Shown here: positions 4,545 through 52,446 of the stretch, in pieces
Numbering within the stretch: position 1 is the stretch's first letter
Layout of the letters: each line of letters begins with the position of its first letter
Assembly (NCBI GenBank): GCA_017397935.1
Contig: JAFQHN010000001.1
Location: 19,134 to 83,133, forward strand
Source of the DNA: Bacillota bacterium
GTDB lineage: Bacteria; Bacillota; Dehalobacteriia; UBA4068; UBA4997
Direction: 5' to 3'
DNA: 64,000 nt
The notes under the pieces: generated by a model
The model's input: only the letters and a program-made list of their open reading frames with translations
What the model was told of the DNA's origin: nothing
The model's database searches: none
Position numbers and translations under genes: made by a program

Positions 4545-4715
4545 TTTTATACCTCGCTACTCCGGTAATGCCTGCCTACTTTTTTTCCATACATTCAGCA
4601 AATCTCACCAATCAGCGGCAGCTTTTTTATACCGCCCCACTTCGGCAATGCCTGCTTACTTTTTCTGTAAACCCGGCAGACTTTACCAATCAACGATAGC
4701 TTATTTTTTCACTTA
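4545..4715. repeat. Tandem ~80-bp units of the TTTTATACC-head family (2 copies plus a degenerate third)
   Basis: TTTTATACCTCGCTACTCCGGTAATGCCTGCCTAC... at ~4545 and TTTTTTATACCGCCCCACTTCGGCAATGCCTGCTTAC... at ~4623; period 80. Confidence 0.75.
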
Positions 4716-6005
4716 TCAGAACATCTCGCGGCGAACAATAGTGCTGTCACGCTCTGCTCCCACGGCCACCATCGAAACCGGCAGGCCAACCAGCTCCTCC
4801 AACCGCAGAATATACTTCTGGGCGTTCACCGGCAGGTCACGGAACATTCTGCACTCCGTGGTATCACACAGCCAGCCCGGCAAAGTCTCATAAACCGGCG
4901 TACATTCAGCCAACGCCTCCAAGGTAGAGGGCATTCTGGTGATAATCTCGCCGTTACAGCGATAAGCCGTGCAAATTTTGATCTCCGGCAGGGTGTCCAA
5001 AATATCCAGCTTGGTGATACACAAATCAGTCATGCCGTTCACCAGCGCGCTGTACCGCACCACCACGCTGTCAAACCAGCCCACACGGCGCGGACGCCCG
5101 GTGGTAACGCCAAATTCCCCGCCCAAAGAGCGTATTTTTTCGCCCATATCGTCAATCAGTTCGGTCGGGAAGGGCCCCTCTCCCACTCTGGTGCAATAAG
5201 CCTTGGCAATACCCAGCACGCGGTTAATGGCCGTGGGGCCAATGCCCACGCCGGTACAGCTGCCGGCAGCCACCGTATTGCTGGATGTCACATAAGGATA
5301 AGTACCGTGGTCCAAATCCAGCAGAGAACCCTGTGCGCCCTCAAACAACAGCTTCTTTCTGGCCTGCAACGCTTCGTTCACCAGATAAACAGTCTCGCCC
5401 ACATAAGGCATTATCTGCTCACGGTAGGCGGCATATTCGGCAATCAGCTGCTCCTTGGCCTCGCCGCTTATCACTGGCAAACCGGCGCACTCAAAGATGA
5501 TATTCTTCTCACGCAGGTTATATTCCAGCTTCTCCAAAAAAGGCTCCCAGGCCAGCAAATCCAGCAGACGAATCCCCTGACGCGCGGTTTTGTCCATATA
5601 AGCAGGGCCAATGCCGCGTTTGGTGGTGCCAATCTTCTTGTCACCCTTCAAGCTCTCCTGGTATTCGTCCATGATATAATGATAAGGCATAATAATGTGC
5701 GCCTTGTCCGAAATCACCAGATTTTTAACCGAAAGTCCCTGTGCCTTCAACATCTCAATCTCGTCCAGCACCACTTTCAAATCCAGCACCACGCCGTTAC
5801 CGACCACACAGGCAGTATCCGGGTTAAGGATACCTGAGGGAATCAAGTGCAAAGCATACTTCTGTCCGTTGGCCACAATGGTGTGTCCTGCGTTAGAACC
5901 ACCCTGGCAGCGCAAAACCATATCGGCCTGCCCAGCCAGATAATCGGTAATTTTACCCTTACCTTCATCTCCCCATTGAGCGCCGATAACAATAACAGAT
6001 GTCAT
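4716..6005 (-). CDS. purA: Adenylosuccinate synthetase
   Basis: 429 aa, N-terminal [12 protein letters not shown]-loop, GIGPAY and full-length PurA pattern. Confidence 0.95.
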
Positions 6006-6293
6006 TCACACATCTCCTTCCACAAAATTGCGAAACCACCGGTTTATTTAACCCACCGTCAGCCAAAGTTTGTTCTGTTTTACAATTATCACAGGCCTGC
6101 GGACATATTTCCACACATTAAAAATTATACTATATCTTAAACTTAACTGTCAACAAAATCTGCCGCTTAAAAGCCAAAAAGCCAAATAAAAAAGCGTATC
6201 GGGCAGCCATCGGCCGCTTAATACGCTTCCTTTTATTTTTGATATGTTTTGGATACCCACATAACCCGGTCGGCAGAGCCATCAGACTTTCAA

Positions 6294-6324
6294 ATGAAAA
6301 ACCCCTGCCATAACAACAGGGGTT
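6294..6324 (-). terminator. Intrinsic terminator after the tRNA cluster
   Basis: Minus-strand AACCCCTG-loop-CAGGGGTT hairpin (6300-6307 / 6317-6324) followed by TTTTTC. A second hairpin AGCGTAT...ATACGCT with a T-run lies at ~6192-6235. Confidence 0.7.
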
Positions 6325-6331
6325 TTCGGCG

Positions 6332-6408
6332 TGGTGACACGTAGGGGATTCGAACCCCTGAATGCCAGCGTGAAAGGCTGGTGAGTTAAGCCCCTTCTCC
6401 AACGTGCC
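6332..6408 (-). tRNA. tRNA-Glu (anticodon UUC)
   Basis: The reverse complement folds as a cloverleaf: GGCACGT acceptor stem, anticodon arm CCAGC-CTTTCAC-GCTGG, T arm AGGGG-TTCGAAT-CCCCT, encoded CCA. Confidence 0.9.
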
Positions 6409-6412
6409 ATAC

Positions 6413-49809: not shown

Positions 49810-49985
49810 CCCTTTTTTATACCCAACTACTCTCTGCAATAAATTACTTTATTTTTTCTCTCAACATATCGGTATTTCCAAATATAAACTATATTTTTTA
49901 TACCCAACTACTATCTTCTATAAAAAAACTTCTACTTTCTCTTTTACTCCATCATATTTTCACTATAAAAATCTCTGCCCTTTTC
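49810..49985. repeat. Two tandem 81-bp units of the TTTTATACC-head family plus shared tail motif, abutting the recF RBS
   Basis: TTTTTTATACCCAACTACTCTCTGC... and TTTTTTATACCCAACTACTATCTTC... (heads ~49819 and 49900). Tail TTCACTATAAAAATCTCTGC at ~49959. Confidence 0.85.
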
Positions 49986-50070
49986 CCACGGCTCCTAAAA
50001 ATTTTGTATAAAACCTTATATAAATAGGCGTACAAAACTCTGCACGCCTATTTTAATTTCTATTAAATTA

Positions 50071-50349
50071 TTAAAATTCCTCTGCCATCACCAGATAATG
50101 CATTTCCTCATCCACTTCATCATCCGCAGCCAGGGTTACCAAATCACCGGCCTGCAATTTCTGGCCGGCCACCGTACAAACCTGCCCGTTCAACAGCACC
50201 AAGCCCTCACGCACCAGCTCCTTGGCCTCGCCGCCGGTCAGCACCAGCCCGGCCCACTTCAAAAACTGGGTCAAAGTGATCGGAAAACTGTTCACCGCAA
50301 TCTTATTCACATTTTCGGGCATATCTGCCATAAAATTTTCCTTATTCAT
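50071..50349 (-). CDS. yaaA: S4-domain RNA-binding protein YaaA
   Basis: 92 aa. ITLTQFLKWAGLVLTGGEAKELVREGLVLLNGQ resembles Bacillus YaaA, and it holds the conserved dnaN-yaaA-recF position. The start could be the internal ATG at 50331. Confidence 0.8.
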   Translation of the reverse strand: MNKENFMADMPENVNKIAVNSFPITLTQFLKWAGLVLTGGEAKELVREGLVLLNGQVCTVAGQKLQAGDLVTLAADDEVDEEMHYLVMAEEF

Positions 50350-50363
50350 ATCAAATTCCTCGC

Positions 50364-51479
50364 TTACGGGTTCACCAGACGCAGCGGCAAAATAATATAA
50401 ATAAAGCTTTCGTTATCCTCCTCGGTCATAGTGCCGGGGGTCAGATTACCGGAGAGCTGCATATAAATATTCTCGCTGCTGCTTACCTTCAAAAAGTCCA
50501 GAATATACTTCAAATTATAACCCACCAGCAGCTCCTCACCGCTTACCGTCGCCGCAATAACCTCACGGATGTTGCCAATATCGCTGGTGTTGGCGGTCAT
50601 TATTATCTGCTCCGGCTTAAATTCCAGACGCACAGTGTTGTTGGCGTCCTTGCTCAGCAGGCTGGCACGCTTCAAAGAGCTGTTAAACAAACTCTTATTC
50701 ACAAAAATCCGGTGCTTAAACTGCTCCTCCTTCGGGATGATCGGATGATAGTCCGGGAACTGCCCCGAAATCAACCGGGAGATAATGATCGTCGAACCCA
50801 GGCGGAAGCAAATATTATTTCTGCTGATGTTGATCTGCACTTCCTCCTCGGCATCAGCCAGCGCAGCCACATCCAGCATGGTCTTGGCCGGCACAATAAC
50901 CTTCATCGCCGCGGTGTTGTCCGTCTGCCACACCGCCTTGGATAAGGTCAGACGGTGGAAGTCGGTCGCCACAAAGTTAATGTTCGCCCCGTCAATATCC
51001 ATCATAATACCGGTCAAAATCGGCTGAATTTCATCATTGGCGCAGGCAATGGCTGTCTGCTTCACAATTCTGGCAAACATATCACCTTTCAGGCTGCCGG
51101 CCAGCTCGCCCTGCAAATCCGGCAGATGCGGAAACTGGTCGCTCTCAAAGCCGCGTACATTGATAGAAGAAATACCGTAGTTGATATTCACATCATAATC
51201 GTTGATCAGGCTGATATTGATATTATTATCCGGCAGCTGGCGCACAATATCAATAAACCGTTTGCCGTCGGCAATCACCAACCGCCCGGGGCTTACCACA
51301 TCGGCCGGCACATCGCACTGCACCGCAATATCCAGGTCAGTCGCCCGCATGGTAATATGGTTATCCTCGGCAATAATCAAAATACCGGCCAAAATAGGCA
51401 TGGTATTCTTGGTAGAAATCGCCTTGCCGATAATCTGCACCCCAAATAATAAATCTTCTCTCTGGCAATTAAAGTTCAT
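50364..51479 (-). CDS. dnaN: DNA polymerase III beta sliding clamp
   Basis: ORF 50364..51548, trimmed to ATG 51479 behind AAGGAGAG. MNFNCQREDLLFGVQIIGKAISTKNTMPILAGILI is a typical DnaN N-terminus. 371 aa. Confidence 0.93.
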   Translation of the reverse strand: MNFNCQREDLLFGVQIIGKAISTKNTMPILAGILIIAEDNHITMRATDLDIAVQCDVPADVVSPGRLVIADGKRFIDIVRQLPDNNINISLINDYDVNINYGISSINVRGFESDQFPHLPDLQGELAGSLKGDMFARIVKQTAIACANDEIQPILTGIMMDIDGANINFVATDFHRLTLSKAVWQTDNTAAMKVIVPAKTMLDVAALADAEEEVQINISRNNICFRLGSTIIISRLISGQFPDYHPIIPKEEQFKHRIFVNKSLFNSSLKRASLLSKDANNTVRLEFKPEQIIMTANTSDIGNIREVIAATVSGEELLVGYNLKYILDFLKVSSSENIYMQLSGNLTPGTMTEEDNESFIYIILPLRLVNP

Positions 51480-51548
51480 GATGCTCTCCTTAAAGCTTAA
51501 AAAACATTCAGTTTCGGTATTACAGCATATTTTGCTTCCTAACAGCAT

Positions 51549-52446
51549 AAAATCAATATAGCATTAGGCAAAAAACAGCCAAAAAGATTTTGCTTAAAAA
51601 AATTTTTTGGCGTTATCATCAGTCATATTCTCAAATTTATGCACATATATTATTACACATATATTATTATTATAATAATTTAGTAGCAGTATTATTAGGC
51701 CATGTTTATATTGTGGAAAACTATCCCCAAGTCAGGTTTTATCGGGCTTCCTCCCCCTGGATAACAATGTGGATACTCACAATCCCCAATATTCCACAAT
51801 TAACATTTTCAAACATCCTCGCCGGCATCCAACATTTTTCCAACAACCGTAATAACAACTTTTTCAACAATTCTGGAAAATTCTGTGGAAAACTATTACA
51901 GGCGGCACTACCATTTTAGTCATTATACTATATTTCAACAATTATCACAAGAGCATTTTTCTATTTCTTCCGGACATTTGTGGACAAGTTCTTTATACCT
52001 ATCTACTTTCCTCTTTCGTTCCAACTTTATCCACTATCTCCATTTATTCCTTCTACCATCCATTCCTGCATATTTGATACCTTTACTACATTTATTTTTC
52101 GTCCCAACTTTATCCACTGTTTCATAAATTTTTTGTTTTTCCACCCATCTCTGCATTTTTTTATACCTAACTTATTTTATCTTTCGCCCAAACTGTTTCT
52201 CTATATTTCCACATTTCTTTTCTATCATAATATCCACATCTTTTATACCTACCTACTTTCCTCCTTCTCTCCTCCTTTCCTCACTATAATTTATTAACTA
52301 TTCACTTTTCACCATTCACCATTCACTCTTAACTCTTAAAATATAAAAATCGCCTGCCCTTACCTTCGGCAGACGATTTTTCTCATCTAAATTCAATTAT
52401 TCTACTTTTCCTGACTCTCCAACGGCTTCAAAAACCCCTCAAAATC
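51549..52446. other. oriC: oriC (dnaA-dnaN spacer): AT-rich unwinding element, DnaA-trio, and at least 10 DnaA boxes
   Basis: 898-bp non-coding spacer with a very AT-rich stretch at ~51590-51680. DnaA-box matches (0-2 mismatches to TTATCCACA, both strands) lie at ~51712, 51768, 51790, 51884, 51979, 52027, 52110, 52205 and 52230. Confidence 0.8.
51681..51701 (+). promoter_or_regulatory. DnaA-trio-like element with GC cluster
   Basis: TAG TAG CAG TAT TAT TAG followed by GCC. It sits between the AT-rich region and the first DnaA box (TGTGGAAAA at 51712), the arrangement described for Bacillus subtilis oriC. Confidence 0.55.

Follow-up and report, generated by a model that had tools for sequence, protein, structure and literature searches.

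The 64-kb stretch of DNA analyzed here (the window), part of a metagenome scaffold of an uncultured gut member of the Clostridia, carries a dispersed family of tandem repeats with units of about 82 bp. Our analysis identifies this family as a lineage-specific, replication-polar, non-coding interspersed minisatellite, that is, a variable-number tandem repeat (VNTR) family, resembling the mycobacterial interspersed repetitive units (MIRU-VNTRs). In total, 10 arrays of 2–5 units lie in 82 kb, every one of them intergenic and filling most of its spacer. The arrays expand and contract in place by whole units, and their orientation follows that of replication. About ten arrays in 82 kb around oriC, with replication polarity and an 82-bp period kept despite diverged unit bodies, are an unusual combination. 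What was analyzed is the window, with its scaffold extended by 9 kb on each side to about 82 kb around oriC, together with about 100 kb from relatives.

A preliminary description made from the letters alone had placed eight arrays in the window, and its head positions proved correct to about 5 nt. The 15-mer head TTTATACCTAYCTAC, allowing up to two mismatches, gives 11 matches, all on the + strand and all in these loci, against 0.13 expected from shuffled sequence, which never reached 11. Tandem Repeats Finder (TRF), run independently of the head scan, reports arrays of period 80–85 at 9301, 24123, 37876, 42170 and 51992 with 72–92% matches, and the two-unit arrays a, f and g are seen directly in the sequence (Table 1). 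The window is 100% identical to ENA scaffold_65 of ERZ28655125, and contigs of ERZ28018825, ERZ28668719 and Logan SRR12529055 carry the arrays with 100% identity too, which makes at least four independent assemblies from different pipelines. Together with the divergence of units within an array (65–92% identity), this rules out an artefact of assembly or sequence generation, a concern that the preliminary description had raised.

We anchored 31 units on their purine-rich strand for motif analysis. The conserved part on this strand is a 21-nt sequence, aAaaGTAGnTAGGTATAAAAAA, which lies at the unit end, carries 13.6 bits (one unit per locus, 10 loci) and is followed by ATGCAG or ATGCCG in six loci. 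The bodies of about 60 nt are near random between loci. The shared head of the preliminary description is therefore upheld, but its statement that the bodies are alike only within a locus does not hold throughout, because two features are common to subsets of loci: the block GAAAAAGT, at a fixed 26 nt upstream of GTAT on the purine strand in arrays a, b, d, e and h (marginal, P=0.037), and a CTGCAT unit junction. The bodies also form sub-families, with b, d, h and i on one side and f, g and e on the other. From head to head, the period is 81.7 ± 1.7 bp (range 79–86, n=21, all arrays). The pyrimidine strand, on which the units were first described, is G-poor as claimed (2–12% G, with a C fraction of 0.22–0.30; on average about C 0.27, G 0.09, T 0.40). 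Arrays d, f and h have no foldable structure on either strand, with a minimum free energy (MFE) of 0 to −13.6 kcal/mol over 161–313 nt and z>0, and the structure test found small hairpins only in a, c and e. The length of the units is not divisible by 3, and the mini open reading frames (ORFs) that follow the heads run for 2–40 codons and are not conserved.

Several arrays had also been said to share a tail, and its core TCACTATAA indeed occurs four times, all on the + strand and exactly where described, against 0.30 expected. The 16-mer GAGATTTTTATAGTGA (given earlier as TCACTATAAAAATCTC) at the end of array f recurs identically at 49960–49975 in array g, and the core lies at 52281 in array h and at 23979. 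We considered this motif as the end of a MITE (miniature inverted-repeat transposable element), or as a separate 5′ terminus, and rejected both: it can be aligned to a block inside the f units and is therefore most simply a truncated unit. The sole candidate for a terminal inverted repeat is a similarity of about 8 nt between TTTTTATA and TATAAAAA in f, g and e, which is too short and AT-rich to be taken as one. No transposase or terminal inverted repeats were found, and no target-site duplications at the junctions inspected.

The loci of relatives, obtained via RecF and PHO4 homologues, show how the arrays change. The closest species (RecF 94%, DNA about 84–93% identical) has orthologous arrays with different copy numbers (Table 1), so that the comparison of orthologous spacers proposed in the preliminary description did reveal copy-number changes. 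Even L013 and L014, which are 98–99% identical to each other, differ at array f. Such in-place steps of whole units are typical of slipped-strand mispairing or unequal recombination. At g, all that the closest relative shows are head-like remnants on either side of an inserted tag gene; this 3-methyladenine glycosylase gene lies between yaaA and recF in both L013 (6368–6922) and L014 (4313–4867). At the position of array e, after ilvN, L014 has a gene with a Cu_amine_oxidN1 domain (12248–13093).

The family is absent from the examined loci of relatives at 79% and 75% RecF identity, and the L016 spacers at the positions of arrays d and e are short (about 65–148 bp). A unit profile (nhmmer) found no degenerate units in other spacers, in L015 or in L016. 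Stringent scans for a two-head pattern gave 8 hits in GTDB genomes, 17 in JGI metagenomes and 3 in IMG/VR, all of them unrelated, with G-containing bodies and at chance level. Because copy number varies in close relatives, while the family is absent in farther ones and no copies turned up in these databases, we conclude that it is young or restricted and behaves as a VNTR. As a separate observation, an unrelated element of about 94 bp, bounded by TTTTATACCACTCTAC...TTTATACC, lies at the ends of six contigs (L030, L031, L037, L040, L041, L043) from two related metagenomes, JGI Ga0056115 and Ga0056116 (GC about 40%); assemblies of some other organism probably break at this element because it is a multi-copy repeat.

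Table 1. Repeat arrays, related duplications and context features. Positions are window coordinates unless another sequence is named; empty cells, no entry.
Feature	Position	Strand	Units, heads or spacing	Copies in relatives	Remarks
Array a	4542–4715	−	2 units; heads 4546, 4626		Fills purA–ndk spacer; purine-rich strand is minus (leading)
Array b	9298–9480	−	2 units and a third head; heads 9302, 9383, 9464		Begins directly after stop of + strand S24/LexA-like gene and precedes + strand fba; antisense to both
Array c	24123–24330	+	3 units, inverted; GGTATAAA at 24156 and 24235, GTATAAAA at 24316		Last head runs into annotated ATG of DUF1385 gene (24325)
Array d	37873–38125	−	3 units; heads 37880, 37960, 38045		Contiguous with secondary DnaA-box cluster
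Array e	42166–42500	−	4 units; heads 42172, 42254, 42338, 42418	1 (L014)	Between ilvN stop and bidirectional terminator, whose T-run is the first head
Array f	46975–47135	−	2 units; heads 46979, 47061	1 (L013), 3 (L014)	Starts 1 nt after stop of + strand Cys/Asn-rich ORF; next gene also +; antisense to both
Array g	49810–49975	−	2 units; heads 49816, 49897		Between yaaA terminator and recF Shine-Dalgarno sequence
Array h	51988–52300	−	4 units; heads 51992, 52074, 52160, 52242	3	In dnaA–dnaN spacer, between dnaA terminator and the DnaA-box/DNA unwinding element module of oriC; positional orthologues 68–80% identical
Array i	~64.5 kb, outside window		3 units	1	Upstream of serS; found by scaffold extension
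Array j	~67.1–67.5 kb, outside window		5 units	2	NMO/ABC convergent spacer; found by scaffold extension
GAGATTTTTATAGTGA motif	47117–47132	−			oriC-proximal end of array f
oriC module	51480–51991		11 DnaA-box-like sites vs 2.4 expected		dnaA–dnaN spacer; context, outside repeat family
Secondary DnaA-box cluster	38061–38626		13 sites with ≤2 mismatches vs 2.5 expected		Context
Head-less duplication	46100–46340		Period 82 bp, ~2.5 units	Conserved in L013, L014	SCIFF–radical-SAM spacer
Head-less duplication	61340–61600		Three units of 84–86 bp		gidB–parA spacer, upstream of parA
Head-less duplication	DnaA-box cluster by array d		82 and 85 bp
Head-less duplication	L013, terminator region near array f		83 bp
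Head-less duplication	L015, 8082–8442		87 bp, 3.7 copies, 93% matches		dnaA–dnaN spacer
Tandem array k	L025, 19880–20140 (~72.3–72.5 kb window-equivalent); L045, 3787–4130		~84 bp; 4 units in L045		PHO4–PhoU spacer

The origin region is of the Clostridia type according to the gene tables: rnpA and rpmH run on the + strand from 54091, and diverging from them on the − strand are dnaA (52447–53796), dnaN (50364–51479), yaaA and recF, then a SCIFF/radical-SAM pair and ilvBN. The true oriC is the rpmH | dnaA–dnaN region at about 51.5–54.1 kb, and the cumulative GC skew has its minimum at about 54–56 kb. The oriC module in the dnaA–dnaN spacer includes an AT-rich stretch (51640–51690) and a TAG-rich run adjoining a GC cluster. 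The nearest named relative is Ca. Avidehalobacter gallistercoris, with 75% RecF identity.

Relative to this origin, the arrays are polar. Seven of the eight window arrays share one orientation, as had been noted, with array c the sole reverse-complement array. To the right of oriC, the heads of arrays i and j point the other way (GGTAYAAAA on the + strand) from those of the seven co-oriented arrays on the left. In 9 of the 10 arrays, the leading strand is thus the C-poor, purine-rich one (one-sided binomial P ~0.011). The exception, array c, lies within a 12.6-kb block (23640–36218) that runs from rpmE and prfA to xfp. All genes of this block are on the + strand and so run head-on to replication, the GC skew of the block is positive, and the amidase–xfp order is inverted compared to relative L015; the block therefore looks like a recent inversion near oriC, by which essential, highly expressed genes have come to lie on the lagging strand. 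Arrays b and f each run antisense to the two genes beside them, yet they keep the replication orientation, and the local spacer skew gives no sign of a recent inversion there. The polarity of the arrays therefore follows replication, not transcription.

The strand asymmetry of the arrays is not a property of theirs alone. Non-coding DNA in the window and in the spacers of L025 and L026 has an unusually strong GC skew of |0.3–0.65|, up to 0.9, and this spacer skew switches sign at oriC, even in spacers between head-on genes. This points to a strong replication-linked mutation bias or to selection on spacers. As ordinary spacers are strongly skewed too, the G-poverty of the arrays is the extreme of a genome-wide spacer property.

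Taken together, these observations lead us to favor, tentatively, a model in which the arrays are tolerated, self-amplifying spacer DNA, with their polarity kept by the strand asymmetry of the genome and with the head and the unit length as the sole constrained features. What the analysis shows is that single units sit at gene boundaries, where they adjoin a stop codon, a terminator hairpin, a start codon or a Shine-Dalgarno (SD) sequence, and that arrays grow and shrink locally by the unit, leaving different copy numbers in close relatives. In the model, only copies with the C-poor strand on the leading strand would be mutationally stable or tolerated, so that polarity would be a matter of survivorship. 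No dedicated cellular function would be needed for the arrays; the head and the unit length would probably be a cis feature for amplification or retention. As a side effect, arrays would alter the length of untranslated regions (UTRs) and supply sequence that resembles a pseudo-translation start and a site of Rho loading.

Several points weigh against this model. A neutral or selfish element does not explain why the head is conserved in every unit when the bodies have decayed, nor why the period stays within ±2 bp across loci whose bodies are unrelated; a conserved head and a tight period suggest instead that the units have a reader, be it a protein, RNA polymerase, the ribosome or Rho. The spread to new loci is left unexplained, because neither a transposase nor terminal inverted repeats or target-site duplications were found. 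The polarity itself rests on only 10 arrays in the 82 kb around oriC, its survivorship account is something that we only infer, and a possible diverged array outside the window, array k in the PHO4–PhoU spacer, may have the opposite orientation.

If polarity and period hold genome-wide, the family would be a natural system for the effect of replication direction on non-coding DNA, and the period would offer a way to ask what fixes the length of duplications in a bacterium. The arrays are usable as VNTR markers for strain tracking of this uncultured gut Clostridia lineage.

One candidate for a reader lies in replication itself. The head could be a polar DNA cis-element that is a protein site or acts on the single-stranded lagging-strand template, in either case depending on fork direction; its roles might be fork or translocase guidance, origin-proximal organization or priming, with the spacing of about 82 bp serving cooperative binding. 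We consider this unlikely, although much of the pattern is what such an element would give: an asymmetric 21-nt motif kept in every unit, a spacing of 81.7 ± 1.7 bp despite diverged bodies, an orientation that flips at oriC and disregards transcription at b and f, and a high density near oriC (5 of the 8 window arrays are within 16 kb). However, the arrays are gained, lost and resized among close relatives and are absent at 75–79% RecF identity, which would be unusual for an essential architectural site. The polar motifs KOPS, SRS and Chi are short, also occur inside genes and are not tandem, and in this they differ from tandem intergenic units. No candidate binding protein was found, and helical phasing is unsupported. 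The preliminary description had suggested that a period of about 8 helical turns would place the sites on the same helical face. The measured period of 81.7 bp corresponds to 7.8 turns (10.5 bp per turn), and within units the A/T dinucleotide periodicity is not significant: a peak at 10.25 bp is the 8th harmonic of the 82-bp repeat and is gone in single-unit tests.

The immediate surroundings of the terminal heads bear on a reader in translation. The earlier suggestion that the repeat seeds at T-runs next to terminators and ribosome-binding sites fits what we see. Read on the purine-rich strand, the final head lies against a start codon or SD in c (0 nt), d (17 nt upstream of the start of the holin-like gene), g and i (about 20 nt); its T-run abuts a bidirectional terminator hairpin in e and j, and the stop codon of a convergent gene in b and f. 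We weighed a purine-sense UTR module, in which the head is a pseudo translation start (a weak SD, AGGT, an A-rich spacer and AUG) that loads ribosomes on 5′, intercistronic or 3′ UTRs and so stabilizes mRNA or couples translation, as proposed for MIRUs. The purine strand is the sense strand of at least one flanking gene in 8 of the 10 arrays, the SD or start of four genes (DUF1385, the holin-like gene, recF and serS) lies 0–20 nt downstream of a terminal head, and an A-run followed by ATG occurs in 6 of the 10 loci. In array c, the ATG of the head is the annotated gene start, and the units carry a strong AAGGAG. This module nevertheless seems rather unlikely to us. Arrays b and f lie directly after stop codons, antisense to both neighbors; the mini-ORFs are not conserved and the unit lengths not divisible by 3 (above); and genuine genes here use SDs of the AGGAGG type. 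In addition, about 65% of the genes in the region are co-oriented with replication (our count from the gene tables), and if the arrays merely took the orientation of the genes, an agreement of 9–10 in 10 arrays would be unlikely (about 0.06, by our estimate).

A reader in transcription would act on the other strand. Here, the arrays would be insulators against head-on or antisense transcription: the pyrimidine-sense transcript would be a candidate Rho loading site (Rho utilization, or rut, site) and pause site, whereas the C-poor purine-sense transcript would be a poor Rho substrate. Rut-like RNA is unstructured, G-depleted and C-rich, and about 80 nt is the RNA length bound by one Rho hexamer. 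The pyrimidine strand of the units matches this composition, with about 80 nt of C-rich, G-poor sequence that ends in a U-run and, in arrays d, f and h, an MFE near 0. Arrays b and f directly follow the 3′ ends of head-on genes, the terminators of such genes precede e and j, and a polarity that follows replication is what such an insulator would need. On the other hand, Rho requires neither a conserved 21-nt motif nor an exact period, and the same composition is general in the spacers of this genome, where the skew arises through mutation bias, so that composition is not diagnostic. On balance, we find an insulator role improbable.

The preliminary description had itself proposed that the arrays are decayed copies of the oriC module that titrate DnaA in the manner of datA. 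To judge this, we scored DnaA boxes against TTATCCACA with up to one and up to two mismatches. Array h has three boxes with at most one mismatch (at 52027, 52110 and 52230) against 0.23 expected (P<0.004), and two of them lie 35 nt after a head. The other nine arrays together have one such box against 0.93 expected; allowing a second mismatch raises this to 15 against 9.65 expected (P=0.057), a figure swollen by the tandem copies. The head core TATCTAC is one base from TATCCAC, but the head mismatches the DnaA box at C6, a position that is invariant and required by DnaA. The h1 and h2 boxes coincide with the T-rich second block of the family, and in the closest relative, L014, the h1 box is lost and the h2 box is degraded.

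Array d adjoins a secondary DnaA-box cluster, some 14 kb away from dnaA, in the spacer that separates the divergent genes for a holin-like protein and an M29 peptidase. The cluster has one perfect TTATCCACA at 38154, its sites are mostly in one orientation, and it has direct repeats of its own with spacings of 82, 85 and 60 bp. Relative L016 has only a 148-bp spacer at this position. A DnaA box had been attributed to every unit inside oriC; the units by array d belong to this secondary cluster, however, and only h1 and h2 have a good box about 35 nt after the head. The box-like strings reported at similar offsets elsewhere show no positional peak after the head. What survives of the proposed link to DnaA is that h and d are contiguous with DnaA-box clusters, the cluster by d repeating at 82 and 85 bp. 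A likeness to DnaA-box clusters or datA is thus confined to h, in oriC, and d, abutting a cluster; in the other eight arrays, boxes are at chance frequency. With boxes enriched only in h and not conserved in the closest relative, we reject DnaA titration for the family as a whole and consider it very unlikely as the explanation of the arrays. As a caution, T-rich box-like strings near oriC should not be taken as DnaA sites.

An equally remote explanation, in our judgment, is that the units are tandem promoters, with the head as −10 element (TATAAA), a CA start in TGCAG, an A-tract at about −46 to −39 as proximal UP element and a period that matches one RNA polymerase footprint (about 80 bp). 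No part of the head is better conserved than TATAAA, GAAAAAGT lies at its fixed distance upstream in a, b, d, e and h, and the e units have TTnAGG 17 nt from TATAAA. This second block is only marginal, though (P=0.037), and neither a −35 nor a TGn element is conserved. True promoters in this DNA are canonical (TTGACA-17-TGnTATAAT for the tRNA operon, TTGACA-17-TATGAT for rpmH), and in d and g, transcripts from the terminal heads would begin within the SD or beyond it. As a sigma-70 promoter array (−35 and −10 hexamers 16–18 bp apart), only e1, e3 and a site upstream of h score 9/12, and there is no consistent −35/−10 geometry; motifs of sigma-B, F, G and H promoters were checked by eye and none is consistent.

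The step of about 82 bp also occurs where unrelated sequence without heads of the family is duplicated in tandem (Table 1). In the SCIFF–radical-SAM spacer, each unit starts with a copy of the descending arm of the SCIFF terminator and its T-run. Upstream of parA, the last two units start with a copy of the parA start region (ATGGGRCAAA...TGC), and the first starts with a copy that has degenerated further, AGGGGCAAGGTATTGC. Unit 2 is unlike units 1 and 3, which resemble each other. A conserved head and a variable body are combined as in the family, with a different head sequence. In L015, the 79% RecF relative, the 87-bp repeat lies between the DNA unwinding element of oriC and the dnaN start and has three TTAGTAnAA motifs per unit. 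Array k, in the PHO4–PhoU spacer, is not strand-asymmetric. Its unit start, TTTTAAGCATAACTAC, matches the family head at 16/22 positions in the opposite orientation, and the array ends in a head-like sequence in purine sense, GCGGTATAAAAGAATGG, just upstream of the PhoU SD; it has no Rfam match, and TRF did not detect it in the window's own strain. Among 30 long spacers put through an unbiased autocorrelation, the best lag was 80–82 bp in 9 and about double that in two more, where we estimate that about 0.9 would be expected by chance.

These cases raise the possibility that the family is the most visible product of a lineage-wide, stepwise duplication of about 82 bp at gene boundaries that acts on any sequence and is set by a physical ruler, with the heads as a polar cis-element. 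We regard this as unlikely too. If it were true, candidates for the ruler would be a DNA-wrapping nucleoid protein, a footprint of the replisome or of single-stranded DNA-binding protein, or an RNA polymerase footprint, and machinery linked to replication would read the units that bear heads as a polar cis-element. In its extreme version, the unit may be retroposed like a short interspersed nuclear element, with a conserved 3′ tail and an A-run, and insert at T-runs of the lagging-strand template.

Some neighboring genes deserve mention in their own right. On the + strand, 46693–46977 is a 94-aa ORF made of 9- and 12-bp repeats with an extremely Cys/Asn-rich product (MACCNNNCNNCCNNCC...NNCGCNNCNNCG). 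It has a good SD and no Pfam match, and it is divergent from the SCIFF peptide and its radical-SAM maturase; it may be a second precursor of a modified peptide. By array b, 7992–9300 holds a divergent pair that looks like the regulatory module of a prophage remnant, with a 148-aa protein that has a sigma-70 region-4-like domain (weak DUF722 and DUF1492 matches) and a LexA/CI-like repressor (HTH_3 plus Peptidase_S24). A tRNA-Glu/Lys/Lys cluster at 6332–6567 has start-to-start spacings of 81 and 79 bp, equal to the repeat period.

Comparison with known classes of sequence excluded a number of identities. No array has a match in Rfam 15 at the gathering score or at E up to 1. A decayed tRNA array is rejected, as the alignment to tRNAs is no better than to shuffled tRNAs, even with C collapsed to T, and the unit profile misses the tRNA region. 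In a clustered regularly interspaced short palindromic repeat (CRISPR) array, the bodies would be spacers, but these “spacers” are 65–92% identical within an array and the gene tables contain no cas genes. The stable palindromic stem-loop per unit of repetitive extragenic palindromes, bacterial interspersed mosaic elements (REP/BIME) or BOX-type repeats is not present. Structured RNA fails on the lack of a fold in d, f and h on either strand, and conserved small ORFs or translational coupling fail on the varying ORF lengths and on unit lengths that are not multiples of 3. The preliminary description did not recognize the family, and we likewise could not assign it to any described one.

In its general features, the family is a minisatellite: its 40–100-bp tandem units lie at multiple intergenic loci, and copy number is polymorphic among strains and close species. 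The STAR elements of Staphylococcus aureus have a GC-rich motif about every 40 bp with variable spacers, and neither a replication polarity nor an 82-bp period has been described for them. Our family is STAR-like in joining a short conserved motif to variable intervening sequence, in being intergenic and in its restriction to one lineage; the sequences are unrelated. Dispersed families of long-unit, non-coding satellites are reported to be rare in prokaryotes, with examples in Leptospira interrogans and Methanocella conradii (Subirana and Messeguer 2019, PMC6749651). These likewise occupy several non-coding loci in one genome, but their units are 37–69 bp long, their sequences are unrelated to ours, and no replication polarity was reported.

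The closest likeness in features is to MIRU-VNTRs, which share with the arrays head-to-tail units of 40–100 bp at many intergenic loci, a varying copy number, filled and empty or one-unit sites, and units that abut stops and starts. MIRUs are GC-rich, are co-oriented with their operons and have imperfect inverted repeats, and their small ORFs overlap with the genes on either side (PMC3184786). In contrast, the units described here are AT-rich and extremely strand-asymmetric, and they lack a conserved ORF, an inverted repeat and a hairpin; two arrays run antisense to the genes beside them, and polarity follows replication. The likeness is one of features, no similarity of sequence being expected, and because operon co-orientation and overlapping ORFs are lacking, the family is not a MIRU proper. 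It works like a MIRU without being one.

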